Notes: generated from the letters alone by a model not told the origin. A stretch of 64,000 nucleotides of DNA from Mytilus trossulus (GCF_036588685.1 NC_086384.1:31062001-31126000); one strand, 5' to 3'; numbered from the stretch's first letter, positions 21,401-55,221 are shown. Program-made: numbers and translations.

Positions 21401-24400
21401 CAACTTTTTCATGAATCCATCCGATTCCTTTGTTTAATATTCACATAGACCAAGGTGAGCGACACAGGCTCTTTAGAGCCTCTAGTTATTTTATTTATTG
21501 TTTCTAACCAAATTTGATCTAAGTCCACCACGTATCCATGTAGAACCCCTAGTGCGTTCACAGGACGCTTAGACCATTTAATTTTATTAAATTTTGGTTT
21601 TTTATTTCGCCACTTGCCTAAATACATGCCAACAGTCTTATCCATATTCATTTTAGCCCCCGAAGCATTTTCGTACAGTTTTAAAGTTTTAAATGATTCT
21701 TCGATAGACTCCTCGCTTTTATTAAAGAGTTGAGTATCGTCAGCAAACATATTTAGCTTTGTTTCAATAAAGTCCCCAGTTCTAGTAGGAAGTTTTATTC
21801 CTTTTATATAAGGGTTGTTTCTAATTGATGCTGCAAGTGGTTCTGCTTGCAGGATATATAACATCGGGGCTATTGTGCATCCTTGACGAATTGAACGGGT
21901 TATACCTACGAATATAGACGTAAACCCATTCGTATGAATGCACGTCTTAGCGTTAATGAAAAGCATTTTTACCCAACTCCTGAATTTTCCCCCAAACCCA
22001 AATTTTAATAAGCAAAAATCGATCCATTCCCATTCCTCCCTATCAAATGCTTTTTGTTGATCTAAAAATAATATCGCACCCTCCTCATCTTCTAACTCAC
22101 AAAAATCTATAACATCTTGTAATAATCTATTGCCTTGAAAAATGTTGCGCCCTTTGACAAACCCTTTTTGATCGAAATCAATTATTTGCGGTAATACATT
22201 TTTTAACCTTTCCGCGAGTACTTTTGAAATAATTTTATAATCCGTGTTCAAAAGCGTTATAGGACGCCAATTTTTTATGTCTTCTCTCTCCCCAGACTTA
22301 AACATAAGCGTTAGCATACCTCTGTATTGGGATTCACAGAGCAAATTGTTGTCAAACATTTCTTGAATAACCGCCCCGAAGTCGTCGCTTATCAAATACC
22401 AATACGTTTTGTAAAATTCATTCGCAATTCTGTCTTCCCAAGGGGATTTATCAAGTTTCAAAATTTTAACGGCCTTACTTATTTCATCTAAAGATATTTC
22501 AATTTCACACATTTTTTTTATTTTCCTCACTTAGTTTACGATCTATATTTTGTAATAGATTTTCTGCAGCATCCCTATCCCATCCCACGGATATAAATAA
22601 TTGTTTGTAAAAAGACACGTGTTCTTCTAGGATAGATTCTATATCGTCCTTATACCTTCCGTCTGAACCTTTTATTCTAGTCCATAATTTTTCAGCACCC
22701 CTCTTTTTTCGAGTTTAAAGAAGAACCCAGTAATTTTTCGTCTTTCTCGTACCAGTTAACATTTGACCTAATTCTGGCTGCCTCAGCTTTTTGGGCATAA
22801 TAATCTTTCATTTTTACTTTCAAATTATTTAATTCGTTTTCCTTTTTGATAGGATGGGTTCCCGTTATATTATCTAACCTTTTTTCCCACTCCCTTACTT
22901 GTTTTTCTGTTATGTTTAATTGCTTTGCAACTTCTATGGTTATACTTTTTATCTTTATCTTAGTTTCCTCCCACCATTCTAGATTATTTTCGAACTGATT
23001 TTTTTTTAATTTCCAGTTCCCCCAAAAGCTTTCGATCGTGGTCACTGAACGGAAAATAAACTAGTTTTACCTGTTGTGATTTATTTTGAAGCTCACTACT
23101 TATAAATAATCAATTCGTGACCTTGAATTACCCCGGCAAAAAGTATACTGTTTTTCTTTAGGGTATCGCTTTCTCCACACGTCTATTAACTCATTATGTT
23201 CAACAAAAGTTTTTAATTCGTGTGATCCTATGTCGTCTCGTACAGGCACTGGTTTTCGATCTAAATTTTTAAGCGCACAATTAAAATCTCCAAGAACGAT
23301 ATTTTTATAATTGTTATCAATAAGCAAGATTAGGAGCATAAACATTGTAAAGAAAAATCCCGTTATTACCTGGGGTTTTAACATGCACAGAAATTGTTCT
23401 ACGAATGCTATCCCGTCCGGTTTCAGTAATTTCAAATTTAAATTTTTCAGAGAAAAGAATAGCTACCCCTTTTGAATAACTTGATCCATGATTCCAAAAA
23501 CTCTCCCCCTTCCATTCCTTTTTCCATTGCGTTTCGACATCGCTAGAGCTATGTGTTTCTTGTAAGCATATTACATCAATGTTTTTCTTTTTACACCAAT
23601 AATTATTGTCTACCATACCATTGACATTTAAACTAACAATATATATCGACATAATACAAAGTTATATAGTGAAATAATGCTTTCTTATGTTCATTCATTT
23701 TACGTGCTATAATATATATATATAAAAAAAATATTTATACACAAATATATGAATAGAAAGTCTCAACAAATGTACAATCGTAATATTCTTTTCTTACATA
23801 TGACACCGTCACAGTTGACTGGGGTGAGCATACACCCGTAACCGTTATTTTCAACTATAATTAAGTAAACCACTTTATTCTTTTTTCCAACTTGTGAACT
23901 AGGCCGAAGCCCGCATGGGTTTCTAAAAATAATCATGGAACTTTTGTTTTCTTCGATCAAAAAAGAAAATAAACATGTTGTATACTTTACTTTTTCATGT
24001 TTTTGACAGCATATTTGCAGTTTCATCGTGTAGTTAACGTTGGTGAACATACACAAGTTACAACTATTCATTGAAATTTTAATAAATTTTACATTAAAAG
24101 GTCGTAGTTCATGACATAACCCACGTGTGTCCATGTAAATAAAAATTCACATAGGAATTTTACAAACTGTTTAAAAATAGCATTGATTTGAAAGTTATTG
24201 ACAAACTTGAATTTTACAGATGCATTATAGCAATTTAGATTTTGACAACAATAAAAAAATCATGTACTATATATATTGTGAATAGTTAGTTAATATGATT
24301 TGGGCATCTTGGTAACTTGCTTCTCGCTTGAGTCAGGAGTGGAACTAGAACTTCGAATACGTTTTTTACTCGGGGTTTCATAATCACCTTCACACTCTGA

Positions 24401-27400
24401 ATTTATAAAGTCCTCAAAAATATTTTCCATCAATTCTGTACCGGATTTGCTGATATGAACCACACTTGGGTCATTCAAGTCAAACAGTGTACGGAACGGT
24501 GTTTTGTTTGGAGCAAATTTGTCCCATAGATCAATATATTTTAGCACTTGACTTTTTACACAGAGTTTTTGTGTAAAGCTTTTTACAGACCTCGCTGCTG
24601 TATTTAATGCTTGTATAGAGCTGCCCTTGTTCCTTCTTGGTAGAATGCTGCAGATACCAATGCGTGCATTTGGGTATTTTTTTTTAGTTTATCTATGCAT
24701 GTACTAAGGTTTGCCGTTATTTGCTCGGTGTCACTTCTGTGCTTACTGATGTCATTTGTCCTTAAATTATGATAAAATCACATTTTACAGTAAATCATGT
24801 ATAGGTAAATTGAATAGGGATACAATAAATTAAAAAAAAGTATGAATCAATTAAACGTATTTTCTGAACAGCATGATATTGACATATTGATAGTCTTTTA
24901 GACCAACAAAACAAAACTAATTTGATTAATTTCTCAATTTATGTGCATTGCGTCAGCACTTAGTCTAGTGATTAAAAACATCTTACAAACATTCCGCCAA
25001 AAGATATATGAACGACGAAATTTTAGTGATATATTAAATGAACCAGGTTTTTATAAGCCTCTTTCAAAGAGTCATTCATGTTTTCAGACTGTCCTGATCC
25101 ACCAAATATTTTGAATGCTGCTTTAGATACAGCGAAAATACGCCATGACAACGTAAATTTGACTTATATATGTAATGATGGTTATTATTTAGTTGGTACG
25201 GAAACTATTGCATGTCAGGCAAATTTAACCTGGTCTCCGTCCATGTTTGTTTGTACAGGTATGTAAACATATGTTAACTTGTCCTACGTGAGGAACCTAA
25301 AGTTGTCGTTAGTTGATGTTGTTAATACGTTTTTCTCGTTTGTAGTTTTTTATATTTTTTGGCTTCCTCGAATAATTGTTCACTAGTTATCTTGGGGCCC
25401 GTTGTAGCTTATTGTTCGGAGTGATCTAAGACTCCGGGGTCCGTGTTAAAGACCATACTTTGACCAAAATGGTTTTTTTCTTTCAAAAAAATTGTGACTT
25501 GGATATAGAGTTGTCTCATTGACACTTCTACAACATCTTCTTATATCTATATCAATTGAGTTGTTTTTGCATATTTCATTATTCAGGACAATCATTACAT
25601 CAATTGAGCTAAACACATCAATGTTTCTATCTCAAAATTAAAGAGTCACGTCAAATTATTTATTTCATTACGAATTTTTACACTGTATCCATAAGAAAGG
25701 AATCAGTAATGGTCTCAAATTTTTACACTGTAGTCATACGAAAGGAATCAGTAATGGTCGCCAATTTTTACACTGTAGTCAGAAGAAAGGAATCAGTAAT
25801 GGTTTCAAATTTTTACACTGTAGTCAGAAGAAAGGAATCAGTAATGGTCTCAAACCATCCTTTATTATATAAATTCTGCTTTTAAAAAATAAGAAAGTTT
25901 AAATATAATAATAGGATTTAACAACTAAGCGCCATGGCAACAAATGATCAAAAGAATAGAAAGTAGATACATAACAAAACATAAAAAAACTAAAGACTGA
26001 ACAACACGAACTACCAATGAATTGATGTGATCGGAAGTATTGTGAACGGGTAAACACAATTCGGCACTATTTGTGAGTTAACTTTTTGTATTTGTGATTG
26101 TATAATGTGTATAACCAGATTGAGAAAGAGGCAGAATATACTTCAGGAACAATCACAACTGTTCAACTGTCAACCAACACTTACTGCATAATATTTATAG
26201 ACTAAGTTAATCGAACTCTACCATAAACCTCAGGTGATCAGGGGTACTTAACAAAGGCTAACATATTCAGGTCGTAAATGCGTGGAACCCGTCTTGTTGC
26301 TCGTGATAAGATGAGATGACTTTGAAGAAATATGATAAACGAAATAAAAGTTTGTCTTTGAGAAACGCATCATTTTATATCAGTTCAAATACTTATACTG
26401 CTTGTGCTTGACGTTTGTTTTAGTCACACAATATAACCAAGTTTATTTTAAGATCACCTAGACCTTCTGGCCAAGTAAAAAATCTTCTCTGAAACTACTG
26501 GGTCAAATTTAACCACACTTTGCCACAATCATCATTTGGTAACTAGTTAAAGAAAGGTGTCCGTTGAACCGGCCAGCCAACCAATACGGCCGTCATGGCT
26601 AAAAATAGAGCATTGGGATAAAATGTAGATTTTGGCTTAGAACTCTGAAACCAAAACATTTAGAGCAAATCTGACATTGGATGAAATTGTTAAACACATC
26701 AAGACCTTCTGCCCTGAAATTTGAAGATGAATCGGACAACCGGATGTTGGATTACCACCCCTGAATTGGTAATTTTAAGGATTTTTTTTCGTTTTTTTTT
26801 TTTATTATCTTTAATATTATTATAGATAGAGATAAACTAGAAACAATAATAATGCTAAGCAAATTAAAATCTTCAACATTGCGACATTGACATTGTATCT
26901 AATACTTACTCTTACATATTTTTTAAGCTTGTTCATATCCGCCATATATACAGAATACTACCATAGACGTTGAAGTTATTGCTGGCGATCCTGTTGTCAA
27001 ATACAGTTGTATTAATGGACTGACACAGATTGGTTTTGAATATACAGTATGTGCAAATAAAACATGGACTTTACCAACCTTCATTTGCTCAGGTATGTTG
27101 TCTGCATCGATTTGAAAAGTTAAATGGGGGTAACCTATAATGAAACGACCAACAAGTGAAAAAAAACGCTACATTTTCAACTTTTGTTTGCACTTGTATG
27201 CTTTCTGTATCGTTTAAATCAAATGAAATGATAAGCTTCAAATACTAAGAAGCAGATGTAAAAAATACATAAAAAACGTTAATTTTATAATATAAAAATC
27301 ACAGCTAAGACATTTACATGAGTACCCGCACTTGTGATAGGATTTGTTTTTAATAAAAACAAAAACGTAATCGGTTATGCCCCTTTGGTGTTCTCGTTTT

Positions 27401-33251: not shown

Positions 33252-33422
33252 ATGAAACACTTAAAATATCTTGATGTTTACATTATTCTGACGGTTATAT
33301 TTGAATTTGTCTTGGATGTAACGGTTGTGTATGGCTTAAACGAAAGTTGGTCTTCTTATTCAAAGGATGGGACATTATGTTACTACTGTTCCCCGGGAAC
33401 TTATTTTATTGATGACTGTCTT
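33252..33422 (+). CDS. TNFR-A exon 1 (signal peptide + start of CRD1)
   Basis: MKHLKYLDVYIILTVIFEFVLDVTVVYG...LCYYCSPGTYFIDDCL|gtaagt (phase 0). Confidence 0.85.
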
Positions 33423-36400
33423 GTAAGTACAAATGTAGAATGAATGACGTTTGTGAATGTTGACACTCCACTATCTAAAGTTATTTTTACTTACAAGCGT
33501 GGATTTGTTTGTATTATATCATCACACGAATGTAAGGTAAAATTATTACCAATTGATGAAAAGTAAACCCCAAACAAACGAAGCAAAAAGACTTTAATAC
33601 TTGTTAACACTCGAAACAATAGTATTATTAATTTGGCAAGAAACGTAACTGCTTATCTCACCTAATACATTGTTGAAAAAAAAATTGATAAACTGAAGAA
33701 GTTTGCTTATTGATTATTTTTTTATTTCAATTTATTTTTATCTTGAAGACCCACAATACTCAGGCTCAGTGTAAACCATGCCCAACACAGACATTCATCA
33801 CCTCCAAGAATATCGCTATTTACTGTAAGCCTTGTACTCAATGTGACCACGTAGTTAGAAATTATTACCTCGCAATTGTGTTAGAAAAATGTACGTCTAC
33901 CTCAAATACAGTTTGTGGATGTAAACCTACACATCATTTTATTCAAGATCATGGCGGGCTCGGAAGAGGACATTGCTTCGAAAACACTAAATGTTCAGCA
34001 GGCAGTGGACTCATTAAACAAGGTAAAACCTTTTTTTTTATCAACATCGGTTTATATTACCTTTTTAAAATGGTTAAAAAATCTATTTGTATTACTTTAT
34101 ATATAATTACACAATAAATTTAATCTACCATCAATATAAGACAAAATAATTGTCAATTTAATTTTTTTCATTTCATTAATCCTTTTTAAATACACATCCC
34201 CTTTTGTTTTTTAGGAAAAACAAATATGTCATTATCTTAATGCAAAGTAACCTTTGTTTTGTTTCAGCTACTATGTTTTCGGATACAGAATGCACTGAAT
34301 GCAATTTAGGATACACATATAGCCCGTTCGATTCATACGAAAGTTGTATCCCATGTACAGAACATTGTCCAAATGGTACTCACATCAAAAATCCTTGCAA
34401 TCGTACGAACAATATCGTATGTGAAAAAGACAAAGGTAATTTAATTTGGAATACATTGTGCATTGGGTATTTTTAAATGATCGATGATTATTCTCGTGAG
34501 TTCATATAAACAAACCCAACGTTATGTATTCACCTGGTTCATTGAATACATTATACACATTTTATAATGAATGTGTATTCGAAACTATATAAGATTGAGG
34601 ATATTAAATGTATAATTCGTAGTAAATTTTACAGTCTTTTAACAAACAAACACGAGAAAGATGTATGTCTGTACTAAATCGAGAATATGACAGTTGTGTT
34701 TGCTCCATCTGTTGATTAATATTGCTTGTTTTTATGTTACGTCAAATGGATTTCCACCTTTTTGACTTGTCCAGCATTGTGGTACTTTTTTTTTTCCTTT
34801 TATTTTGTATTGTCAAAGATTTACCAATCAACACCACATTTCATATGGGAGACACCCAACTACAAGGTTTTGAGTACTTAAACAGATACGAATATTAATC
34901 TTGTTTTTCCATCTCTATAATTGACAGCAAAATGCATACTACGAAAGTGCCATAAAATCACATAAGGTATGTACTACAAAAGCAAACCATTGAAAATAAA
35001 GAAATAGGCAAAATACAACCCCATGACGATACATGAACGACAAGGTCTTAGCATTTAGACTTCGCCATAAGCTCAAATAACTGGTTATCACAGTATTTCG
35101 TCATGGGGTTACAATTTGCAATTTCGATGTAATTAAGAGTTTAATGCAACCACTGGAGAAACAGTATTCCGTTAAGTATATGTGTAAGCTGTAATCGAGA
35201 GGGAATTGTCCGCCATATATGTTTTTCGATTATTATTTAGAATAAGTAAGGTAGTAAATGTTCTCTTGTGAATTAATTTCACATTTAGCAATTCCAATGC
35301 CTTGTTTTGCTTTCATATGATATGAACTAATAATTTTGAAGACTGCACCGTTACATTGAGTTGTTTTCATTTTTTGTTGCTTCGGTCTTAATAGATCATA
35401 GTTAACACATTAGCAGCCCTTTCATTTGCATCACTAAAAAACATTTGTCTAAAGAAACTCTTAACCTTTTGATATACAGGTTTGCCAACACAGACGAATA
35501 ATACGAAAAATGATAAATTAACAATGCGGCTTGCCATTGTATGTAGTACAGTGATACCGGTGACGATTGTCATTGTCTGCTACATTGTACTTATAAAACG
35601 AAGACGGCGAGAAAGGCCATCGAATTCGTTTCAACTGTAAGTACTTTAATACTATACAGTGAATCTTCCAACAAATATGTACTGTTTATTTTACTGTATG
35701 AACAGGAATAAAATGAAAATAAAGTATAACTTGATAGCATATAGAAATATCCAAGTCGATTTGTAATAGACTTGATGTTTCAAAGAATAATATTTGATCT
35801 AGACATACTGATCAAATGAGTGTTGTTCAGAGACCTGAATAGTATAAGTATATATTTTTTTATGTGAAGCATGTCTGGATGATTATTTACAGCATTAATT
35901 GTTTAAATGTCTAAAATAGTCTAGACCTTTCTCGAATGACATTTTTATGGCTACACTAGTGCGGGGTTTTTTTTGTGACTAAAGAAAATGCCTGTACCAA
36001 GTCAGGAATAGGACAGTTGGTATCTATTCGTTTGATGTATTTGAGCTTATGATTTTGCCATTTGATTAGGGGCTATTCGTTTTGAGATTTCCTCGAATTT
36101 ATTTTGTGATTTACTTTTTTATTTGACAGTGTACGTAACACGTAACAATCAATAAAAGCATTGTATAGAATACATTATAGAATTTAAAGGACTTCATATA
36201 ATTAATTCGAATTGAGTGCGAGTGACAAATTACACAGATGCGGTATCAAAATATCAACGGTCGTACTTTTAATTACTATTGTATCACTAATTAGTATTCA
36301 TTTTGTGGGGAAAACACGAAAATTTTCATTCTAATAAAATAAAAACATAGATGTATGTTTATTAAATACGACACCTGAGTATAAAAAATATATGGCAATA

Positions 36401-38176
36401 TTTTTCAAAGTACCAGTTAATACATATAAGCGAATGAATATATAATAAGACACTCTTGATATGTTTTTGTCCAGCTGGAATACAAAGTTACAGTAACATT
36501 ACTGTATTACAAATGCAACATGGATACATCTTTATCAATATTTTTTATTTGTATTACAGCGATGACTTTATGAGAGACATACCTCCGTGGATGAAAGATT
36601 GTATAATTAGTAAGTGTGATTTTTTTTTGTCTTCATCAAATCAAGATGTTTATTTTTTATAAATGTTCTGTTGACTTGTTATTGCTTTCATTCTAGTGAA
36701 TTTGAAACTAGTTCATTTTTTTTCATTCTGTTTTCTAGTGCTCACTACCAAATGTTGAACCTATTTGTCAAAGATAAATACAGGTGGCAATGCGACAGAA
36801 TCTACGTCGGTACAAAGACACGCACTAACACAAATCTAGACGCTGCAAGCACAAACACCAGTCAAATAATATTCAAAGCTGTGAATCGGCTCAACAAAAA
36901 CGCTTAAATGTCGGCTGAAAGAGCAAACAATCATATATTTTAAAGATACAGGAAAGAAAAAGATACGATAAAACATAACACAAGAACCTTCGGGCTCCGT
37001 GCTATCGAACCTTCATATGAACATGTTTTGAAGCAACAGTTTCTAACCGATGTTCAAATTACTAAAATAAAAAAAGGCTAACAAACATAAAATGTAGAAA
37101 TTAATTGACCGCTTATTTAGAAAATAGACCAATGCGTTGAACAAGTCATATTGATACAAATTATTGGTGGGAATACATAATTTAAATTTTTTCTTGCAAC
37201 AGACGACGTTGTAAACTGGCCAAAGCTGTTTGGCTGTTGTTCTACACAAGGGTTTGTGCTACCAGATTGGGAATCCTTCATCCGAGATTTATGTAGTAAG
37301 TTTCGCTAAGTTTGTTTTAAACTTTCTAAGTTAAGGTTATGTCACTATGGGTGATCAGTGTATTTTCTTTCATCGCATATATGGCAAAATTAAGATAAGA
37401 ATGGCATTTGGGATACACAAGATATTATTTTGTATTACAATTATTCAAAGCGTTCAATAGACGAGTACGGTATACAAATTTTGTACAAATATTTAGAAAC
37501 TTATAATTCAGTCTAGAATGCATGTGTATATATTTTATGAATTTGTAGATAGATAGCATATGTTTATTGTGCAAAGTTTGCATGTATAAATATATTGTGC
37601 AAACTATAGTCTGGTTATGCATATTAGACACAACACAACAGTGCATGACAGATTCGTTACAATATCATGAATATAATATGCTTCCCAAATATTTATTTTA
37701 GCTTTTACAAGAACTANNNNNNNNNNNNNNNNNNNNNNNNNNNNNNNNNNNNNNNNNNNNNNNNNNNNNNNNNNNNNNNNNNNNNNNNNNNNNNNNNNNN
37801 NNNNNNNNNNNNNNNNNNNNNNNNNNNNNNNNNNNNNNNNNNNNNNNNNNNNNNNNNNNNNNNNNNNNNNNNNNNNNNNNNNNNNNNNNNNNNNNNNNNN
37901 NNNNNNNNNNNNNNNNNNNNNNNNNAAATCATAACAAATGCGCTGTATTTAATCTCTTCAGGGGGATCAGAAATGGCAGAACACGGAGAAAGAATCGTAG
38001 CCTTAAGTAAAGAATCGTATGAAAAAGATAAAGCAAAATCTCGTATGTATTATGCCATGGATCTATGGAAGCAGAAGAACGACACAGGGGACGATATCAA
38101 AATGTTGAAAACTTTCGCCTGGGCTTTTCGAAATCATCGAACTACTATGAGAGAAATGGTCTGCTGTTTAAAATAA
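33252..38176 (+). CDS. TNF receptor superfamily member with death-domain-like tail (TNFR-A); exons 33252-33422, 33749-34022, 34268-34435, [34819-34866 tentative], 35480-35636, 36560-36609, 37203-37295, 37962-38176; 375-391 aa
   Basis: Hydrophobic leader; CRDs (CYYCSPGTYFIDDC / CKPCP..TF..CKPCTQC..C..TSNTVCGC / C..G.G....T..SDTECTEC); TM LAIVCSTVIPVTIVIVCYIVLI followed by KRRRR; DD-like DWESFIRDL...ERIV...RMYYAMDLWKQKN. All splice phases are compatible. Confidence 0.85.
33749..34022 (+). CDS. TNFR-A exon 2 (CRDs)
   Basis: gaag|THNTQAQCKPCPTQTF...CKPCTQCDH...CGCKP...CSAGSGLIKQ G|gtaaa. Confidence 0.88.
34268..34435 (+). CDS. TNFR-A exon 3 (CRDs)
   Basis: tcag|ATMFSDTECTECNLGYTYSPFDSYESCIPCTEHCPNGTHIKNPCNRTNNIVCEKDK|gtaat. 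Confidence 0.88.
34819..34866 (+). CDS. TNFR-A possible stalk micro-exon
   Basis: aag|DLPINTTFHMGDTQLQ G|gtttt; open and phase 1-1, but both splice sites are weak. Confidence 0.35.
35480..35636 (+). CDS. TNFR-A transmembrane exon
   Basis: acag|GLPTQTNNTKNDKLTMRLAIVCSTVIPVTIVIVCYIVLIKRRRRERPSNSFQL|gtaagt. Confidence 0.85.
36560..36609 (+). CDS. TNFR-A juxtamembrane cytoplasmic exon
   Basis: acag|DDFMRDIPPWMKDCII|gtaagt; phase 2 in, phase 1 out, matching neighbours. Confidence 0.75.
37203..37295 (+). CDS. TNFR-A death-domain-like exon 1
   Basis: acag|DVVNWPKLFGCCSTQGFVLPDWESFIRDLC|gtaagt; 93 nt. Confidence 0.8.
37717..37925. other. Assembly gap (209 N)
   Basis: Run of N inside the last TNFR-A intron. 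Confidence 0.99.
37962..38176 (+). CDS. TNFR-A death-domain-like exon 2 (terminal)
   Basis: tcag|GSEMAEHGERIVALSKESYEKDKAKSRMYYAMDLWKQKNDTGDDIKMLKTFAWAFRNHRTTMREMVCCLK*. Confidence 0.8.
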
Positions 38177-41822: not shown

Positions 41823-41972
41823 ATGTTAACACTAATTGTCAAGTTGACATTATTTATTGTCCATTTTGTTTCAATTGATGCTAGACATTTAGCAAAGTTT
41901 TATCATTATTCAACGGACAACAACATCTGCAATAAGTGTAGCCCAGGAACATACTGGATTGCTGATTGTAAA
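41823..41972 (+). CDS. TNFR-B exon 1 (signal peptide + start of CRD1)
   Basis: MLTLIVKLTLFIVHFVSIDARHLAKFYHYSTDNNICNKCSPGTYWIADCK|gtaagt. Confidence 0.82.
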
Positions 41973-44900
41973 GTAAGTTAGTACATGGCAAACAGCTATT
42001 ATATTAAATATGATGATTAAAAAATAGATAAAACCGTTGTTAAATATACGAAAAATTATCAATTTATGCATTATTTCAAATATAACAAAACAACGAAGTT
42101 CTAGTTCGTGGCATTATTTTGGGGTGCGATTTTTACCAAAACACTTATAAACTGTACATTTAAATATCGTGTAATATATACGATATTAACGATATACATG
42201 TTATGATATGAATTAATCATGTTTCGCTTCATGTGTAATTTGGTGTATAAATTTAATAAAATTTAGTGGAAATTTGTTTCTTTTTTATTATTCTTTTTTT
42301 CAAATTATAAATATGCATTTTCAAATGAATGTATGTTTTTATCTGCAGTATACAAAAAAGGTTTTGATATAATATATTATAAGGTCAACAATGTGGAGGT
42401 GGATTTCTATTACGAACGAATCATTTTGTTTAATTTCAATTAGCGAAGACGTCCTTTCTGAATATTTAAATAACTTTTACATCTCCGAATACTGACGAAT
42501 TTCATCTCTACCATCGACACTTTTGTTTTCTGTTTTGTAAGACATTAGTATAACATTTTAAATTGATCGGATTTTATCCCAAACTATAGGCGTAAACCGT
42601 ATTCTTTTTATTTTCAAACAATAGCATATCATCTTCCACATCGTATGCACACAACTCAGTTGATAGATGTAAAAAAAAAAGTGACTAGAATAGTCTCATT
42701 TGTTATTTTACAATTTCTGGTGAAATATATCCGACGGTGGATTGGAATGGCGGGTGATGTAATTTTAGAAAGAGACACTTATCCTGACAATGCAATCGAT
42801 CATGACAGCTTTTACAAGCTACTTTTATTTGTCCTTTTTATAAATTTAAATATCATAATACTACTATTGACTTCCCTTTTCAATGTTTTTCAACCTTGAT
42901 TTGATTGCGACTTCTAACTGTTTTGATTCGCGCTATACTGATATAGATAAGATAATCTAAGGAAAAGCAAAAGCTTTAGATTTGGTGAAAACTCTTACAC
43001 CCGTAAGTATCCGAGGGTATCACCAGCCCAGTAGCCAGTACTTCGGTACTGGCATGAAAATACGGATTTTTTGTGTTATTTAAATTTACTGTTACAAAAT
43101 ATTAGAAATTATTATAAATTAAGGAATGTATCTCCCTCATGCAAAGCTCTGATTCCTTTCACTGATATGGCTAAACTTTTTGGACTAAATTATAATCCTG
43201 GTATCTTTTATAACTATTTGCCGGGTTTCCCCTGGTTTTTTTTCTACCCCCCCCCCCCCCCACCTTCCCCTCCCTTAAATAAGATGATTTTGCCTCATTG
43301 TGTCTATGATTAATCATCAAACTTGTTTATATTATGATTTTAGAGTCTACATTTTAAGGAATAATCACTAAACATTTACGTTAAAACAACAGATTTTTTT
43401 CAACTTAAAAGGGAAAAATTTTCATTGTATTTCAAATTTTTCTAGATGAGGGGAACAACTATACATTATAATAAAGAAGATATAAGACCTGGAATATAAC
43501 AAAATTAATGGACATGTTTTGATCATATAATACCAGTAAAGTTAGCAGGGAAAGTTTCTTCAAAAGAAAATACTGATGTGCCCTTTTGCGCTTAGAAGTG
43601 TTTTTTACAACAACAAAAAAAGCTTTTATCACATGAAATTGATTCCTTATTTCATTTGTAGTCATTACATTGAAGGGTAACTCTCATTTGAGGGGTTGTT
43701 CCCATCCTTTCAGATAGATTTCTTCATAACAACAGTTTCACTTTCTTGACCATCGTAAATTAAAAAGTTGAGACGTTAAACTATGCTTGAAACACGTGTG
43801 TCCCTCAAACGAATTTAAAGTAGTCTCCCTAATCAATTACCTATATTAAAGTCGAAGGATAACTAAAGTTTAAAACGGAGATTTTTCTTGCTTTTGAACA
43901 TTTTTCGTCACAACAACAACTTTCTTTTCGAAGTTTGCTTCAAACACATGCGTCGCAAAGTGGTAAATAAATTCTGTATGTGACATTTAACCATATCATA
44001 CAATTCAATCAACACCTTTATCAATTAGTCATTTGTTGTCGGTAGCAATCAGCTGATTCTTGATTTTCTGTCCAAATCTTAATGAGGTCAAGGTGAAATC
44101 CGAGTATTGTCTGATCGGATAAATTCCGAGAAACTCAAAAAGAAGTAAATTAAAAAGATGTTGAAAATAAATCGTCATTTATGTTCCTTTCGCCGAATTC
44201 TTTCGCAAATGACGATTTTTTTATCGTCACAATTATTCCAGCGGCAACCCTGACTATTTGCATATGCATATAACGTAATGACATCAGTGCTGATTTATGA
44301 AAGGTATGTGTATATCGAGGCTTAAATAAACCACATTTATTTCCAGCGAAAACCCATAAGGTAACTAAGAAGCAACGTTTCGAGGGCCTACAGAGAGTTG
44401 ATGTACTCTCCGTACTACTAATAAATTGAAGTATATCAGTTATTTTTGTACTGTGTATACATTTTTAGGAATATGATTGGTTAAAAGAGTCCTCGTTGAT
44501 ACCGTGTATATTTCATATGAGGTAAGTAGGGAGACAGGGCTTATGTCATACACTGTTAGAAGGGGAGTTATGTCACTTTATATTCCATATTATGTCCTAA
44601 TTCGTAGCCTCAACCGAACATAAAACATTTATCAATATAATACAAAACTCTCACATGGGAGTAGCCACTTGAAAAAAACAAAGATCGGGCAAATGTATGA
44701 TCAGTTTATTTGTTTGTGGTGGGGTTCGTGTTGTTTATTCTTTAGTTTTCGATGTTGTGTCATGTGTACTATTGTTTTTCTGTTTGTCTTTTTCATTTTT
44801 AGCCATGGCGTTGTCAGTTTGTTTTAGATTTATGAGTTTGACTGTCCCTTTGGTATCTTTCGGCCATCTTTTATTAAAGTTAAATACCTAAATTTTGAGA

Positions 44901-45069
44901 TACAGATAATTGAGTAAAAATGTTTCCTTCACATTTCCATTTTAAGCAGATTCGGATAAATCTCTTCCCGCATACTTTATATAGCCAATCAAACAGACCT
45001 TTCTATAAATAGCATTAACACCTGTTCCTTACCAAACAAAACAAACTGGCATCGATATATGTACAACTT

Positions 45070-48000
45070 CACAGTGTGGGAACGGAACTGTACGGTTTTC
45101 TAATAATTTGGTCATTCGGGAGACTGTCAAGCGGTGCTCCGACATTCGAAAAATAACAAGTTGCTTGATGGAAACTTTGACGAACTCTTATATTCCTATA
45201 TAACGTTTCTGCTTCAAGTTTTGATAGCTAAAACATTCTTTATGTAAATATGAACCAATAAAATAATAAGAAAGATATATGCATCAAAACGTTTTCCTTA
45301 GAATGGTGAAGCTCCGTGTAAAACGATAAAAATTGTCACACAACAGCGATCAAAAATGTCAAATAAACATCGAAAAATCATTGTTTGCTACCTGGATTTT
45401 CACATGTACCTTTTCTGATATATAGTCTTACCTGTCTGAAAGTTTCAAAGCCATTGTCCCAGTAGAAATCTAAATATATTCATTTTCTCCATGTCGGATA
45501 TTTTTATTGACTGTACAATCGCTCGCAAGTTGACTGTAATATCACTCGGGGCCTTCCTGTAAATCACTCGGAGCTTTCCTGTAGAAATGCTTGGCCAAAT
45601 TTATCAAATACATTGCATATGCATTGTATTGGTTGTGTATTGCTGTCCTATTTGTTCATCTATGGTATTTGAAGTGAAAATAAGCACAAAACCAGTCATT
45701 TTGACAATTAAGATTCTATCAAGGAACCCTATTAAGGTGACTATATCAGAGACAAAAACAAAACGTGTACACTACACACAAAAAAGAAGATGTCCCGAAA
45801 TAACAATGGTCAACGACTTCGGAAAACTAACGGCTTATTTATGTACAAAAAATGAACGAAAAACAAATATGTAACACATAAACAAACAACCACTGAATAA
45901 GTATACAAGACAAAAAGAAAAGGACAGTACAAAATATGTAAAGAATCTAATCTTAAATAAAAATGAAAATAATCCTCGTACAAAATAAATATTTATATAT
46001 ACCGAAAAGATTCTCTGGAAAGTTAATTGGCATATTTTGGATTTTACTTAATATATTATTCACCAGGAATTTAAGAAAAATAATAAATACATAATCGAAC
46101 AATACAACAAAGAATTTTTCAGCACAGGTCGGGATATTGTTACTTGATATGTTCCATAGTTTGTTTGAAAAAGTGTGAGGGAATCGACACATACACCACA
46201 GTTCCATATCGACCCTCTGATTGGTTTACCAAAAGATTGAAAATGGTCATGTGGTGTATGTTAGATACCTCACACTTTTAGCAAGAAACTACATTGTAAC
46301 ACATTTTCTTTCCTGTGATATCAGTTGAGAACTTTGACACATGTCATTTACCAAATAAAAAAGTGATTGTCTATATGTGTAGATACACCATAGGATGAAC
46401 TAAATTTCAAAGCAAAGCTTTATCGTGAAATTTAACCTCTCTTATGGTGTATCTACACATACCTAACACTTTTTAATTTGGTATAAAAAGGAATTCGAAT
46501 GTGGAATAACCACCGACCCAAGAAAAGACACGTATATGTCAATAACCATGATATTAAAATAGAAGATGTGGTATAATTACAAATGAGATGTCTGTTTATT
46601 ACAAGCTATACATGTAGCTACTGATAGAAAAAGCTCCAGTAAAATTAAATTTTATCAAGGATGGGAGAGGACTTGTTATCTGAAAGACAGAGAAAACACA
46701 AAATTCTTCAACATTTTTTTTATATCAATGTCACGATTCAGGAACTTTTTAATATTCCCAACTATAGCATCTGACAAACGAACGAAACAGTTGTTTTAAT
46801 TTAGGGAAAACAACATTTTATTAAACCACATTTATATTTTCAACATAAAAATAAGGAGATGTGATATGATTGTCAAAGTTAAAAAATAAATGGATTTAAG
46901 CAATTATAGTCGGCTATAAAAGGTCCAGAAAAGAAAAATAAGAATCAATACCTTTCGAATTTAACTGACGGCCTAATTCATAATAAAACAATTTACAAAA
47001 AAAAACATATATGACAGACATGAACCAACGACAACCACTGAACTACGAGCTCTTGACTTAAAACAGGTACATAAAGAATTTGGCAAGGGTAAAAATGTTT
47101 GTGTGCACTCATTTCTCCCCAAAACTATCACAGCACTAGACCAAACTATAAAAATGAGATGAATAATCGGATCATTATACTATCATTGACGATATCAGAC
47201 CAGGTGCGGATCCCGCCTTTCTACAAAGGGGGATCCAAACCACGGAACACCATAAAAGTCGAAAAAAAATAGGCTTCAACCACCAAAAACTCCCTCTCAC
47301 CGCATACCAGATCCGCTAATGCAGGGTGCAGCCATTCAAATAAAACGTTCAAAAATCATTAACACTTTTGAGTGTGTAATTTAGGTTAAAACAAAAATCG
47401 ATAACAATACCAAAAATCGTAACAGAAAAAGGAGAGAAAAATCATACCAGACATATATTGTATTGGATTGCAGTAGTTTTAATAAATATTTAGATGACAA
47501 AAGTATCATGGAAAACATAAACTGATCATGAATGTGGCAGACGAAGTTTAGCATTATCTACTTAAGAGTTATAATTAGTCATATGCCACTAGAAATTATT
47601 ACAGCAAAATGCATTGACTAGCTTGCTTGCTAGCTGGACCGTGAAGTCATAAGAAGGTTAAGAAGGTTACCCTCCTTTCGGAGTAGTCTAGTTGGCCAAA
47701 CGATGAAAAGAAAAGCTCCGAGTGATTGTACAGGAAGGCTCCGAGTGATATTACAGTCAACTTGCGAGCGATTGTACAGTCAATAAAAATATCCGACATG
47801 GAGAAAATGGATATATTTAGATTTCTACTGGGACAATGGCTTTGAAACTTTCAGACAGGTAAGACTATATATCAGAAAAGGTACATGTGAAAATCCAGGT
47901 AGCAAACAATGATTTTTCGATGTTTATTTGACATTTTTGATCGCTTTTGTGTGACAATTTTTATCGTTTTACACGGAGCTTCACCATTCTAAGGAAAACG

Positions 48001-48220
48001 TTTTGATGCATATATCTTTCTTATTATTTTATTGGTTCATATTTACATAAAGAATGTTTTAGCTATCAAAACTTGAAGCAGAAACGTTATATAGGAACAT
48101 AAGAGTTCGTCAAAGTTTCCATCAAGCAACTTGATATTTTTCGAATGTCGGAGCACCGCTTGACAGTCTCCCGAATGACCAAAATATTAGAAAACCGTAC
48201 AGTTCCGTTCCCACACTGTG
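45070..48220. mobile_element. Non-autonomous Transib/RAG-like-superfamily DNA transposon with about 510-bp TIRs
   Basis: Ends CACAGTGTGGGAACGGAACTGTACGG...CCGTACAGTTCCGTTCCCACACTGTG; TIRs about 45070-45577 and 47712-48220, near-identical; direct 5-bp TSD AACTT (45065-45069, 48221-48225); no transposase ORF inside. Confidence 0.85.
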
Positions 48221-48542
48221 AACTTTAATATATATTTAATTAGTAAGGAGGCGGGGCTTTTTTTAATTAACGGTAGGTCAGTGGTGTTACGTCCCTTTAT
48301 AAAAACAAAACGGCTTTGAAAAAAAAATCGTAAAGGTTTCAATAGACGACGAAATTGCTGACAAAGATTAAAATAAACTAATAAAACACATTTAACTTAA
48401 CAAGTTGTTATTTTTGGCATCTGTTTTTGTAGGATCAATGGAAGTAGTTTCTTAATTCAAACAGTATTAAAGACTTTCTCATTTTGATAGGACACTAATC
48501 TAAATTTCACAAGTTAATTCATATAGTCGGTAAGATAAACTC

Positions 48543-48700
48543 GTTACATAGTGTGCTAGTGACGTAATCATGGTAATACGGTATATACATGGGTTCAGTA
48601 AATTTGATATGGGGTGAGAGCGAACGAGATGCGCTCTCACCCCATATGGAATTTACTGAACCCATATATGCCGTATTACGTCACTAACAAACTATGTAAC
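48543..48700. repeat. Long imperfect palindrome (hairpin)
   Basis: GTTACATAG..ATGGGTTCAGTAAA..ATATGGGGTGAGAGCG / CGCTCTCACCCCATAT..TTTACTGAACCCAT..CTATGTAAC. Confidence 0.85.
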
Positions 48701-49176
48701 TAATAATGTTGTCCTGTCTTTATGTCTGTATGTACAACAAATGTTAACTTTGTGTTTTTAACAAAGTAAAATAAAACTGACTAAAAATGGTATACCATGA
48801 TAATACTGGGAACTTTTGATAATCTTTAATAATAAGTTAATTAGGGGCGATGTATGTTTCCATACATAAGAAGAGTATAATATGTTCAGATGTTAATGCA
48901 AAAAAAAAAAAAACCTCTGTATCACAGTTCTGAGGAATCGAGTTTTTAGTAAGGTACTGATAACTCATTTATTTTCGTAGGTACCAATTTTTGTGGATTG
49001 AAGAAAATGTGCATGCATTCCTAAAGCATGTTTAGACAATTTGTAATTCGTTGAACATTTAAATTCGTGGTTTCCCTGTTCCCATGAAATCGTCGAAAAT
49101 TTGTATCCAATGAATATTAATGTAGATTGAAGTTCTTAATGTTAACACATACTTTTTTTTTTATATTATCTTTCAG

Positions 49177-49341
49177 CAACTAACTTTACAGACATTGTTT
49201 GTCAGGAATGTTGGATAGGTTATTACAAAGACTCGTCGTCTTCCGATGCTTGTAGATTGTGCTCAGTTAATTGTCGGAATGGTACCCATCTTATATCCCC
49301 TTGTAATACAACTCATGACACAGTATGCTCCAAAATAGACG
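49177..49341 (+). CDS. TNFR-B CRD exon (homolog of TNFR-A exon 3)
   Basis: tcag|ATNFTDIVCQECWIGYYKDSSSSDACRLCSVNCRNGTHLISPCNTTHDTVCSKID|gtaaa. Confidence 0.85.
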
Positions 49342-50192
49342 GTAAATATAAATAATCTGTTGGTTTAGCAATCTTATGTGGTTTAATTATGAAAGTTGAG
49401 AAGAAGAATACCAAACACATCTTTCAGATATGTGTGTGTGTGTTCCGGTAGTGGAGAATAAACAAAAATCAACCAATCGCGATAGCTTGGTATAATAACA
49501 TTTCTCTAATTTTATGTAAATTTACCCCTTTCCCAACCCATTGTATAAAAAAAAATTAATCAACGTGTGGTTGACGATGATCTCAACAGATCATTCGATG
49601 ATTTTAAGTGTCATGACCTTTTTAGCTTACTGGATGAATCAAAATATGCTATAACAGGTGTTAATGAAATTGACGACTTCGTGAAATGTGGAAGGCACTC
49701 GACAATGCTCGAAGGAAATTTTCGTTTAACAAAAAAATAAAATGTATTATTTAAGCATTAGAGAAACAGAATCTTACATAGTTATTCGTGGATTATTGGA
49801 GTTATCCAATCTCGATAGTTATACAGGCATTTTCTTAGGTAAAAAAAATGGTGGATTTTATAGCTATAGCTAAACCTCTCACTTGTAAGACAATCGCATC
49901 AAATTCCATTATATTGAAAAAGATGAGTGGACAACACATACAGACAAAATAGGTAAAACTGTCAAAAATAGGGAAACACCAGTCAATGCATTGTCACAGT
50001 ACCGATTTTAAAGCAAACAAAACTTTTGAAATTTCATGGGAGTATTATTTATGTTTATTGGTCTTTATGGATACGAACGGAACACAATTTACAAGGAGTT
50101 GCAAACTTGGGATACGTATATCATTCATAATATACTACTAACAAATATACTTTTTGATGCGTTACTTTTATTTTCAAAAAATGAAAATGAAG

Positions 50193-50363
50193 GAGTTTTT
50201 TTAAAAACCAAGAATAACGCAGAAATCGACATTCTGACAGCTTCTTTTGTTTCTGGTGGCATATGTTTTGTATTAATTATGATATGGTTGGTACGGATTT
50301 TTCGGAAAAGGCGAATTAAAAGGAAACAAATTCAGAGCTTAGCAGTTCGACTTCCATCGATGG
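50193..50363 (+). CDS. TNFR-B transmembrane exon
   Basis: GVFLKTKNNAEIDILTASFVSGGICFVLIMIWLVRIFRKRRIKRKQIQSLAVRLPSM|gtaagt; acceptor position is approximate. Confidence 0.78.
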
Positions 50364-50975
50364 GTAAGTATCTGCATAAACACAACAAAAAGTCGACAGC
50401 AGTTTTTTTAGGGGGATAGAATCTGTGATATCAGTAATGAAACGTGTACATTTTTAACGGTAAAAAGTTAATTAAGCAGTTCCCTTTTCAAGAATGTGAC
50501 CTATCGAATTATACTATTTACCGGGTTTGTAACAACATAAGCAAACATGTCGAATGTCACATGTGGAGCAGGATCTGTCTATCCTTCATGGGCACCTGCG
50601 ATCACTTCCAGTTTTGAAAGGGGTTGTGTTGCTTAGTATTTTGTTTTCTATGTTGTGTCTTGTGTACTATTATTTTGTCTGTTTCTCTTTTTCTTTTTTG
50701 CCATGGTGTTGTAAGTTTTCATTATTTTCGATCTATGAGTTAGACTTCCCTCTGTTATCTTTCGCCCCTCTTTAATAATACGATTGGAATTCTTTATACG
50801 TTGCGACACTAACGCAGAGCTGAATGGCTAGAAAAAAATGTTGTACAGACGTCATTGTTGAAGAAATTAACAAGCAGTTCATTTTTCGTAATCGATCCTC
50901 TCAAAGTGCGTTTAATATGAAACGTTAAATATTATAAAATAACATGTTTTATCTTTTTGTTTTGAAGTCCACTAG

Positions 50976-51032
50976 ATGACCATACACCATCGAATGAATA
51001 TGACTGGATACAAGCCTACAGATCAACTGAGG
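50976..51032 (+). CDS. TNFR-B juxtamembrane exon
   Basis: ctag|DDHTPSNEYDWIQAYRSTE|gtaaat; resembles DDFMRDIPPWMKD of TNFR-A. Confidence 0.6.
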
Positions 51033-51044
51033 GTAAATAAGTAT

Positions 51045-51182
51045 AGATTATAACATGCCCTTTTCCATATTGGCTCTGGTATCATCCCGAGACTCCCATA
51101 TCGGCCTCGAGGCTTTAGCCGAGGGCCGATATGGGTCGAGGGATGATACCCGGGCCAATATGGAAAAGACATGTTATAATCT
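51045..51182. repeat. Long imperfect palindrome (hairpin)
   Basis: AGATTATAACATG..TTTTCCATATTGGC..CCCATATCGGCC / GGCCGATATGGG..GCCAATATGGAAAA..CATGTTATAATCT. Confidence 0.85.
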
Positions 51183-52105
51183 TTTTATCACATATTTAAG
51201 TTCTGCAGAAAAGAGAGAAAAAAAACGTCAATTACATAAAAGGTAAAGTCTTAAGGGAATTATCACAAACGTGTTGTTAAGGATGCAATGACGTCTCGTC
51301 ATTAGGAACAGGGCACAATATGGATATGTCTTTTTTGCCCCGGGCAATTTTGAGGTTATTGCATATGCAAAACCCGACGTATTCGTTACAAATATGTGAT
51401 AAATGTTCTTATATATTTTTATCATTTTTGTTATTTATTTTTTTAAATATACACGAGAAATCAAAGCTTCGATTAGATTATATCAGATATACAGAATTCT
51501 CTTATGGTTTTAACATGTTCTTGAATGAACTGATATATCCCGTATCCAACTATACGGAGTGTGATTCGATAGTGATAAAAAAAAATCTGCAGTAATGTTA
51601 TTTGCTTAAATACTGCACTCGTTCTATTTGAGCAGTCAAAATGCGTTGACCGTATAATTCTATGTCATATACAGTCACTGGCCTGATATCACTTTTCCTC
51701 GTGAATATTTAAATAGAAATTGTCGAAATTATATTTTATTATTCATATGACCTCTTCGACCTGTTCTTGTTTCCAATGTAAACAACGATGCATTTAACGA
51801 CTCACACTTGTTTCTTTTACAATTTTTCGGAAAGCATATTTCGTTTATCAATATTTTTTGTTTGCAACCTATAAATCATTATGTTTATGTTCATTGTTGA
51901 TATGTTAGTCTGTAAACAAACGAATTCGTTCTCCCTTGATTGCGGTTTTCAACAGGTAATGATGTACGTTTCATCGTGTTGTATATTTCTCCGCCTGTGT
52001 GATATGAGGCCTTTTTAAAGGTTTTTTTCCCGAATATTTAAAGCAAATAAATAACATTAACACACTAAAAAACAATTGAAATTGGTTTTTTAGATTGCAG
52101 TATAA

Positions 52106-52254
52106 AGACAACAATAGTGCATTGACTTGACATATCAACGATATAAGGTTTCGGCACGAAACGGGGGAAATGCTCGGTACAGCCTCGCATTTCCCCGTTT
52201 CTAAGCCTCATCCTTACATCGTTGATATGTCAAGTCAATGCATTATATTTGTCT
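52106..52254. repeat. Long imperfect palindrome (hairpin)
   Basis: TGCATTGACTTGACATATCAACGAT / ATCGTTGATATGTCAAGTCAATGCA. Confidence 0.85.
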
Positions 52255-52609
52255 ATATCCAGCATCATGCGACGATTTTACGACTTTTTATAATTTGATA
52301 TTCGTTAGATCAGTGATATCTTTTAAAGATTAGGACGGTGTACATTACATGGCAACGGACATTTGTGATACCTTCAATGACATATAAAACACTCTAACTA
52401 AAAATGCTTTATCTGCATGTATGCATGGAAATTAAAAGTTAGATGCTTAAAACGAAAATATGACGCCATACTGTTTTAAGCAAAAAACTAGTTTACCTAT
52501 TCGTGGAATTTTATATTTAATTACTTAATTTATTAATATTCTTATTAATATTGCCATGTATGCATGGTATAGATGCATTAAACAAATGTATCGTTCTTTA
52601 ATACAACAG

Positions 52610-52703
52610 AAGGTGAATACGATTGGAAATAGACTTTTTCATGAATGCACATCCAAACCTGAGATAATTGGCCATTGGGAACAGTTTATAAGGATATTAT
52701 GCA
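52610..52703 (+). CDS. TNFR-B death-domain-like exon 1 (frameshifted)
   Basis: EGEYDW[+1 A]NRLFHECTSKPEIIGHWEQFIRILC aligns with DVVNWPKLFGCCSTQGFVLPDWESFIRDLC. Confidence 0.75.
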
Positions 52704-53079
52704 GTAAGTATGAATTCATAAATCGTATATTAAGTTATTAGTAATACATGTACTTTAGTCTCAGAGGCATGATTTGTTTTTTATTAGTTGTAAGTGACTT
52801 TGAACTAGCTGTCAGATAACTTCTCAGATCGGTTAATAGTGTCTTTTTGTGTCGAGATGTATAAGTACCCGGCCACGTCCACTTGTATTTTTTGTCTATC
52901 TGATGAGTTAAGCCTTTTTCAGCTGATTTTTATAGTTCGTTCTTATGTTGTACTGTTTTACCACTGTCCCTGGTTAGGGTTAGGGGGTCCCGTTAACATT
53001 TTTAACCCCGCCACATTATTTATGTATGTGCCTGTCACAAGTCAGGAGCCTGTATTTTTTGTCGTTTTGTCGTTCATTT

Positions 53080-53278
53080 TTTTACATAAATAAGGCCGTT
53101 AGTTTTCTCGTTTGAATTGTTTTACATTGTCTCATCGGGGCCTTTTATAGCTGACTATGCGGTATGGGCTTTGCTCATTGTTGAAGGCCGTACGGTGACC
53201 TATAGTTGTTAATGTTTGTGTCATTTTGGTCTTTTGTGGATAGTTGTCTCATTGGCCATCATACCACATCTTCTTTTT
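53080..53278 (-). repeat. Abundant short dispersed repeat family (GATGTGGTATGATTGCCAATGAGACAACT...)
   Basis: Related copies or fragments at about 2958, 4730, 4937, 5524, 11700(-), 25500(-), 46855 and 59328. Confidence 0.75.
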
Positions 53279-53793
53279 AATATTTAAATACGTTTTTTTT
53301 TTTAAACATTCCAATAAAAAGTGTCTGTACAAAATTATTGAGGTTGTATACGATGACATACAGAAGGAATTAAATCCGTAATATCATTATGAAAGATTGA
53401 TCTCATGCATCACACATGTTTGCCTTACCATCTTAGCGAATTATACAAAACGAATATCTTCTTAAACAACTTAAATATGAACCACTGTCAAAAACAAATA
53501 TTACCGCTCATATATACATTTTGATAGGCAGTCGGTAATATAAAGCCAGTACATCAAACAACAAAGACATAAAATAACTACACATGTGTTTGAATAGATG
53601 CGTTCAAATATTTATAATCAGTCATGTCGGTTGTTGCGCTTTTTTTTGTCAGCTACATGTATCTTGATTAAAAATAATAATAAAATTGAGAATGGAAATG
53701 GGCCCCTAAACAAATATAACCAGTTTTATTTGCTAATTGAAAATTAAGCGGAATAAAATAATCTAAGACAGCAGAGAAGACAATTATGATTAA

Positions 53794-54177
53794 GTGCCAG
53801 TCTTTGTAAGAATCAGGCAATTTAGGTAAAAATGAAAACATGATGAGAAAAAACCCACCGAGCTAATCATGCTATTTAATACTCATCATCATTCTGAGTT
53901 AAAAATTATTAGTCTTTCGTTTGTGTGTGTCTGGTAATAGGAAATAACTTCGTTAGAAAATTGGTTAGAATGATAGCAAATTACAGAGTTATCTCCCCTT
54001 ATTTGTAAATTTCTAGTGCATTTCAACCAAATTGTATCTTCTATTACCAGAACAGAAAATGGAAATGAATGTTATTTTTGTGCATAACTACATATTATGA
54101 ACTGAAATCAATGTCAAATTGGGTGTTTTTTTTTGGTCATGTTTACACCACTGCCTGATTCTTAGGCAGACTGACAC
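53794..54177. mobile_element. MITE flanked by TTAA
   Basis: ttaa-GTGCCAGTCT..TAAGAATCAGGCA...TGCCTGATTCTTA..AGACTGACAC-ttaa. Confidence 0.6.
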
Positions 54178-55012
54178 TTAATTGGTTATTTCTAACCGAT
54201 TGAAATAAAAGAGTGAACTACTATTACTGTAAATGTATCCTACTTAATTTAAACGATAAATTGTTGAAATTAGATATATATAACTTGGTTTCACGTGCAG
54301 AGAAATTTCTTTTATGACAAATGCATTGATGATTGGATATCATCTTTCTTGTTGGTCAATGGCCTTGCGGGTCAGCACGAGTTCACGTGTAAGTGCATCG
54401 TGGTCACTTCCTTTTATCAACAGCATTTGATGTGTTAACTTGTGATTCTTATCAAACAATTTGTTCAAAATTCCCACCAACATACTGCCCTTTATATTAT
54501 CTTTTGAAGTAGATATGTATATTTATGGGGCAGTTTTTCTCCCCACCATTGCTATTCTTTGTCATTTATTCAATTGACATGATATTAGTTGATGTAATTT
54601 CGTAATAATTATGTATTATTATTTCATATTGAATATGAACTTTTATGTCAAATGTTTTATTTGCAAAATGTATTTTTTTGCATTTTATGATTTTGAATAA
54701 ATGACCTTTTTTTCGTCAGTTTGGTTTTTTATATCATATAGCAAATCAAGCTCACACTCTGGTTTGTGTATACGTAGTATGTTTATGATATCTAGCTGTC
54801 TGTCTTAAATACTAGTCGTTCTCTCATCAAAATATGAACATATAAAATGATAAAAACCGTGTTTCGTTGGGTGACCTGTATCTGTGTGTTAATAATGATT
54901 ATACCAGCTTACTTAATTTAGTTTGGTTTAATCATATTTTCTTAGTAAATAATAGAAAACAACAAAAAATATGTATGCACATATAATGACAATGGCTTTG
55001 CTTACCATTTAG

Positions 55013-55221
55013 TTACATCTAGTAAAAGCTCCACGGCAGAACAAATCATTGCAGAAATAACCATAGGATATGAACAGACGAGAGTAAAGGACAGAATATA
55101 CAATGCACTACGTTTATGGAGTGAAAAGTGTTATTCAGTTGGTGATGAACATATGGTTATAGTATTTACTGACAGCTTCTATAAACACCAAGAAGAGTAT
55201 AATCAAACACGCTCGAGATAG
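55013..55221 (+). CDS. TNFR-B death-domain-like exon 2 (terminal)
   Basis: ttag|TSSKSSTAEQIIAEITIGYEQTRVKDRIYNALRLWSEKCYSVGDEHMVIVFTDSFYKHQEEYNQTRSR*; colinear with the TNFR-A last exon. Confidence 0.78.

Follow-up and report, generated by a model that had tools for sequence, protein, structure and literature searches.

A heptamer-ended transposon family in Mytilus trossulus and its probable mobilisation by a predicted P-type transposase with an internal exonuclease

A 64,000-nucleotide stretch of the Mytilus trossulus genome (GCF_036588685.1, NC_086384.1:31062001–31126000; hereafter the window, with positions counted from its first letter) contains a transposon that starts at both ends with CACAGTG, the heptamer of recombination signal sequences, and that encodes no transposase. 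CAC ends and a 5-bp target-site duplication (TSD) serve to assign such gene-less elements to Transib/RAG, and the first-pass annotation of this stretch proposed that a RAG1/Transib-like enzyme had recently acted in the lineage. We asked which enzyme moves the element.

The element, its family and its insertion site

The element had been placed at 45065–48225; it is real, but that span counts in the TSDs, and the element proper occupies 45070–48220 (3151 bp). Both ends read CACAGTGTGGGAACGG, and the arms (left, 45070–45580, plus strand; right, 47709–48220, minus strand) align with 97.7% identity over 527 columns (45055–45580 against 48235–47709), about 15 of the outermost columns being flank, which gives terminal inverted repeats (TIRs) of ~511 bp and bears out the near-identical ~510-bp TIRs described earlier. 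The direct AACTT duplication noted outside them was read at 45065–45069 and 48221–48225 (plus strand). The 2.1-kb interior (45581–47708, no strand assigned) was analysed by frame scan, copy comparison, tblastn and repeat search. As annotated, it lacks a transposase: no stop-free frame exceeds 103 aa, and tblastn with the proteins of the autonomous element described below detected neither transposase nor zinc-finger remnants. Its description as patchwork host-like DNA does not hold, as the same interior is fixed in the family, mostly 92–97% alike among copies, with two short pieces of common repeats near 45810–45950 and 46860–47140. In the window it is ~126 bp shorter than the family majority, with the gap near 45789. 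Short palindromic MITE-like repeats occur in the window at 48543–48700, 51045–51182, 52096–52264 and 46349–46483, the last within the transposon interior.

The terminal 19-mer was found 103 times in forward and 100 times in reverse orientation in the 1.30-Gb genome, counts that take in relatives from a second, asymmetric-ended family; the reversed 19-mer was found 0 times, so the shared end is not due to chance. The first-pass annotation had suggested tabulating ends, TSD lengths and interiors genome-wide. The top 40 matches to the end of the window element yielded 29 loci, of which 24 two-ended copies were kept, leaving out three one-ended copies, one truncated copy and one duplicate of the same insertion. 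A perfect 5-bp TSD flanks 22 of the 25 paired copies (the 24 and the window's), and the other three differ by 1–2 bases. Sixteen near-full copies diverge by 1.0–2.5% (mean 1.4%) from a 3285-bp majority sequence, in a sample that favours young copies because loci were chosen as best matches to the end of the window element. The claim of a recently mobile non-autonomous family with 5-bp TSDs is thus upheld. The TSDs are AT-rich, with 19 of 110 bases G/C (17%) versus 27.8% in the flanks (p=0.014), and their consensus is roughly RWWWY. A further 36 loci at unpaired ends are mostly truncated or older copies, and older arm variants are present in the genome (L060, L067 and L083).

Many copies, the one in the window among them, are mosaic at five arm sites that usually tell left from right, a pattern that weakly suggests arm-to-arm conversion or interior inversion at sites that are not fully fixed. 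The same insertion with the same flanks was found at several places (L050/L051, L096/L097, L061/L062 and L078/L082/L085/L089/L092/L093); judged by the shared flanks, these are segmental or larger-element duplications rather than new transpositions.

The insertion lies in the tail of an older dispersed host repeat, delimited by paralogue comparison to 44957–45069 (plus strand) and continuing at ~48226–48240. Empty sites with a single AACTT, which the first-pass annotation had proposed to look for, were obtained as paralogous copies of this repeat, the contigs at the orthologous site breaking in the flanking repeat. With a query that ended at AACTT by design, 29 of 29 copies carried one AACTT followed by TGATAAATAT (27 exact, 2 with one change). 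The window resumes with TAATATATAT right after its second AACTT, indicating that the insertion made the duplication.

The host intron belongs to TNFR-like gene B and separates a first coding exon ending in phase 0 (41823–41972, plus strand; 71% to M. californianus TNFRSF5-like P0186) from a CRD exon starting in phase 1 (49177–49345, plus strand; PF00020, E 5.6e-9). A region with the transmembrane exon follows at 50126–50364 (plus strand), in two frames with an apparent frameshift near 50320. The loss of a CRD exon from this intron was correctly noted: gene B has no match to residues 53–143 of the M. californianus orthologue, and in a search of 41900–49200 the best hit had E 0.51 and no candidate for a Cys-rich exon emerged. 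Because of this absence, with its phase 0 to phase 1 mismatch, and the apparent frameshift, gene B is likely a decayed pseudogene in the assembly. Both TSD copies are intact, so the insertion did not remove the exon. A link between insertion and exon loss, or somatic TNFR rearrangement, was rejected in view of the intact TSDs, the intronic-repeat flanks and the second lesion in the gene. The annotation's own denial of V(D)J-like recombination stands, and no nonamer was found at 12/23 spacing, the letters quoted in that annotation matching at 1 of 9 bases at 12 and 3–4 of 9 at 23. Gene B (41823–55215) is the second of two tandem TNFR-like genes, the first lying at 33357–38140. Elsewhere in the window are a Sushi/CCP-domain exon array (3126–14253 and ~25150–25220; PF00084 for 3126–3440) and broken non-LTR retroelement remnants with reverse transcriptase and endonuclease-like frames (8626–9948 and 19291–23661).

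Intact 11.4-kb elements with the same ends

Another 40 loci include five that match the end of the window element over the first 80 bp only. These led to the asymmetric second family, in which one end is ~70% like the 510-bp arm and the other is unrelated past 80 bp. The unrelated end, used as query, occurs at 21 places, all of which were inspected. Ten insertions have both ends and are mostly deletion derivatives of an 11.4-kb element; their TSDs are 5 bp in seven, 6 bp in one, 4 bp in one and absent in one. Two intact elements, the autonomous copies with the same ends for which a search had been proposed, lie at C10:11579822–11591209 (TSD GGATG) and C41:375891–387270 (TSD TAAGG). Each is 11.4 kb long with 80-bp TIRs and an open 1474-codon frame, and the two are 98.7% identical. 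The second gene of this parent element is a C2H2 zinc-finger ORF (PF00096, E 2e-17) convergent with the transposase gene, and none of its other unexplained frames is RAG2-like (100-aa listing of unspliced frames).

Both window arms match the parent's 5' end, over bases 1–502, with 74.8% identity for the left arm against bases 1–504. The interior shows no similarity to the 11.4-kb parent except a single 24-bp match. Over the terminal core at 45070–45149 (plus strand), 77 of 80 bases are identical to the autonomous 5' end, and this core, as long as the parent's whole TIR, is likely the transposase-recognised end. Across 48 arms, the first 80 bp have a median identity to the parent of 96.3% and bases 81–500 one of 72.6%, the window-family arms being 71–74% like the parent beyond the first 80 bp. 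Since the strongly conserved stretch has exactly the parent's TIR length, we infer selection for continued recognition by the parent's enzyme.

Other candidate parents were rejected. The long copies L036, L038, L040, L042 and L046 are the same element with inserts. In L040 (2574–8602; G000:C2, ~20.86 Mb), a 6-kb element is nested in the family copy. Its open frames measure 783 and 569 aa, and it has a DUF6589 match (E 6e-5) and apparent ends TAGTCCAGC...GCTGGACTA; it was set aside as a parent for its own ends and unrelated protein.

Contigs from two studies, with source runs presumed to be RNA, cover the transposase ORF and lack two GT..AG introns, one of 573 and the other of 395 bases. The joined frame encodes 1567 aa, with a tail resembling those of annotated homologues, and the parent's protein is 94–99% identical to Mytilus proteins. 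In two raw RNA runs, next to no reads fell on the transposase ORF, and none of the contigs examined covers the zinc-finger ORF.

The predicted transposase and its relatives

The spliced 1567-aa product is a DDE/DxxH transposase. Pfam analysis of 30 aligned proteins detected YqaJ in 23; the N-terminal family of P-type RNase H matched 13, weakly, and no protein matched RAG1 (PF12940) or THAP. No THAP match was found in residues 1–306 of the parent transposase, which contain a C2H2-like motif instead. At the sequence level the resemblance to P is weak (PF21787, E 0.0036, short of the cut-off), and neither the protein nor its profile had a significant match in PDB, so the assignment to P rests on the predicted model and motifs. 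An AlphaFold2 model of residues 290–1467 (pLDDT 79, pTM 0.66) was used for fold comparison. The top two Foldseek matches were P transposase, followed by lambda-type exonucleases. With VIA-align, the model superposed on P transposase with Z 23.9 and rmsd 3.0 over 315 residues (chain residues 211–569), and on lambda exonuclease with Z 16.1 and rmsd 3.2 over 192 residues (model residues 200–416). Scores were lower for HzTransib (Z 10.0, rmsd 5.2), RAG1 (Z 8.7), Hermes (8.5) and BbRAG1L (8.3). The parent enzyme is thus predicted to be much closer to P transposase than to RAG1/Transib. The first-pass annotation had said that a non-Transib/RAG partner would count against its reading; both autonomous elements with these ends encode such an enzyme, and the proposal of a RAG1/Transib-like recent mover fails.

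Among the rows that contain the residue, D308 (26/26), D861 (27/27), D1253 (26/26), H1256 (25/25) and E1424 (24/24) are invariant; catalytic roles were assigned to D308, D861, D1253xxH1256 and E1424 by motif and secondary-structure position. About 480 aa, comprising a helical bundle and the lambda-type exonuclease, are inserted after the first aspartate and ~350 aa after the second. This places the predicted exonuclease within the RNase H fold, in the stretch that separates the first catalytic aspartate from the second, and all 30 rows retain its residues D609, E628, K630 and Q653. A fold search with an N-terminal model reached a best Z of 4.8, so no domain can be named there; residues 187–270 align weakly with the HTH region of P (Z 4.7). 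An Atlas search returned one YqaJ cluster at 0.85, a lead only.

The parent's protein has 43 matches in the genome from the 37 of 221 candidates that were scored, and among these no other transposase copy exceeds 62% identity except one 94% fragment. Nine further transposase loci (within L127–L144) are 28–48% identical over most of their length, and the seven with defined ends span 7–13 kb with TIRs of ~50–550 bp. Of ten sister loci analysed for ends, seven have CAC..GTG TIRs and 5-bp TSDs (AATTA, AGGTA, ATATT, ACTTA, ATTAT, AGTTT and TTATA), two gave none, and the tenth, from which only 10 kb of DNA was taken, showed no such pair. The script sought CAC and 5 bp explicitly, and a separate inverted-repeat search gave matching boundaries. 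The seven ends start with CACAGTG, CACCCCG, CACCGTG, CACGGTC, CACGGCC, CACTGGG and CACGGTG, so only CAC is fixed in the lineage, the full heptamer occurring in one of the seven (the C4 family, CACAGTG). Three of the seven have TIRs of ~410–550 bp, making long TIRs usual in the lineage. All nine transposase loci tested have opposite-strand zinc-finger matches, and four of these matches are weak.

A profile built from five sequences and covering the region past the exonuclease retrieved 1214 representatives with E no higher than 1e-10, of which 492 reach 1e-30. Named relatives come from Mytilus, Ruditapes and Mercenaria and, in the 4 of 10 clusters for which names were obtained, from Owenia, Batillaria and Branchiostoma belcheri. 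By sequence matching, relatives of the transposase are present in molluscs, an annelid and amphioxus, with ends and TSDs known from the Mytilus genome alone. No description of the lineage was found in the literature searched; Repbase, Repbase Reports, Dfam, subscription journals and supplements lay outside that search and may list it. A 2026 preprint on a 'novel DDE lineage' was discarded as a description, its accessible text concerning true Drosophila Transibs, and PMC10294476, in its accessible part, reports a single Transib from the molluscs it covers and says nothing of YqaJ or exonucleases. Our tentative proposal is an undescribed, widespread lineage of animal DNA transposons, of superfamily rank beside P, that may have converged on the RAG-like (RAGL) outline of CAC/heptamer ends, 5-bp TSDs and two convergent genes, and whose P-type transposase would contain an internal 5'-3' exonuclease that processes ends or the donor break.

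Mechanism, rival readings and known systems

The window element is very probably a non-autonomous cut-and-paste transposon, its arms matching the 5' end of the 11.4-kb element, that is moved in trans by the transposase of this element or of a near sister, an enzyme whose predicted P-type fold holds a lambda exonuclease inside the catalytic core. The transposase would bind within the outer 80 bp, as these stay 96% identical while the next 420 bp drift to 73%, then excise the element and insert it with a 5-bp stagger into AT-rich, RWWWY-like targets. The symmetric family may have arisen by copying of one end over the other, or from two head-to-head 5' ends that captured the intervening DNA; Galileo provides a precedent in its two-TIR copies and TIR extension (PMC3573991). 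P transposase makes a 17-nt staggered cut that leaves 3' extensions on the transposon ends (PMC7776569). The putative exonuclease might resect 5' strands in either of two roles, an idea we put forward with some reserve. In end processing, it would generate the 3'-overhanging ends that P transposase obtains by its staggered cut. At the donor break, resection would serve homologous gap repair, which could also yield deletion derivatives and end copying. Lambda exonuclease degrades DNA with 5'-3' polarity. A further mark of the P superfamily is the use of GTP as a cofactor.

That a RAG1-like or Transib transposase moves the family is highly improbable, even though the ends invite that reading. 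CAC termini resembling the RSS heptamer, here a perfect heptamer in full, and TSDs of 5 bp (seen at 22 of the 25 paired copies) are Transib/RAGL hallmarks, RAGL elements occur in bivalves (PMC7204232, PMC1131882), and two convergent genes in the element are a further RAGL likeness; genome searches for RAG1 (PF12940) and RAG2 (PF03089) gave 0 matches, but the controls likewise matched nowhere. Yet the coding elements recovered with these ends all encode another type of enzyme, predicted to lie much closer to P and with PF12940 in none of its 30 aligned proteins, and their second gene is a C2H2 zinc finger rather than RAG2L. Transib and RAG target sites are reported to be GC-rich (PMC1131882), unlike the AT-rich targets of the window family, and its ends have neither a nonamer-like A tract nor the AAA at positions 8–10 of the protostome RAGL TIR consensus (PMC7204232).

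A closer rival concerns the helper. The family could descend from a lost or unassembled sister autonomous element with its own 510-bp TIRs, the 11.4-kb element being its closest surviving relative. Since the arms are only 71–74% like the parent despite the young burst, the true helper could be such a sister, absent from the assembly or among the unscored candidates. The drift to 73% past 80 bp, the ~410–550-bp TIRs of three of seven sister families and the older arm variants (L060, L067, L083) favour this history, but no 63–93% identical transposase appeared among the 37 of 221 candidates scored, the window interior holds no transposase or zinc-finger remnant, and the strongly conserved stretch has exactly the parent's TIR length. 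We regard it as rather unlikely, and it would alter the helper, not the enzyme class. Equally doubtful is that the exonuclease plays no part in transposition and instead degrades excised intermediates or processes replication or repair substrates. YqaJ-type nucleases accompany several unrelated transposon groups: ISL2EU has a separate YqaJ ORF whose function is stated as unknown (PMC4482050), and KolobokE carries its nuclease as a downstream domain (PMC9587614). Against this, the position of the domain between the first two catalytic aspartates and the conservation of D609, E628, K630 and Q653 in 30 of 30 rows suggest tight coupling to the transpososome.

A perfect heptamer with a 5-bp TSD can thus belong to another enzyme, in bivalves and probably in amphioxus, the same groups that are searched for RAG ancestors. 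If the undescribed lineage is real, invertebrate gene-less 'Transib' families named from their ends alone may partly belong to it, and its intact, recently active mussel copies make it directly testable. For a transposase predicted to hold a second nuclease inside its RNase H fold, the two intact parents, the coding sequence in spliced form and an 80-bp end mapped by nature are now available. These materials offer a way to test why lambda-type exonucleases occur in several transposon groups and how the stagger of a P-type scaffold shifts from 8 bp to 5 bp.

The element works like a P-type cut-and-paste transposon, yet its TSD length and the missing THAP domain place it outside P. Like the Drosophila P element (PDB 6p5a, 6pe2), the parent has a split RNase H fold with an insertion domain in its predicted model (Z 23.9), a DxxH signature, a weak match in the HTH region (Z 4.7), a spliced transposase gene and internally deleted non-autonomous derivatives (PMC7776569). 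Unlike P, with its 8-bp TSD and 2.9-kb length, the lineage has 5-bp TSDs (in the window family, both parents and seven sister families) and elements of 7–13 kb; its parent transposase has no detected THAP domain and contains inserts of ~480 aa past the first D and ~350 aa past the second, and the parent carries the second, convergent C2H2 zinc-finger gene. Galileo, a P-superfamily element whose TIRs are long, likewise has TIRs of hundreds of bp, two-TIR copies without coding sequence and TIR extension through recruited internal sequence, but its TSDs are 7 bp, the accessible text mentions no exonuclease (PMC3573991), and a THAP domain is present (PMC3688188). KolobokE and ISL2EU share a PD-(D/E)xK lambda-type exonuclease (PMC9587614, PMC4482050), and Kolobok also a C/DxxH signature. 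KolobokE differs in having TTAA TSDs and RR ends and in placing its nuclease downstream of the transposase (PMC9587614), and ISL2EU in its AT TSDs, GG ends and YqaJ in a separate ORF (PMC4482050). Chapaev (CMC) has the same invariant CAC...GTG ends but 3–4-bp TSDs, whereas the parent enzyme bears DxxH, the signature listed for P, hAT, MuDR, Kolobok and Dada (PMC4079192).
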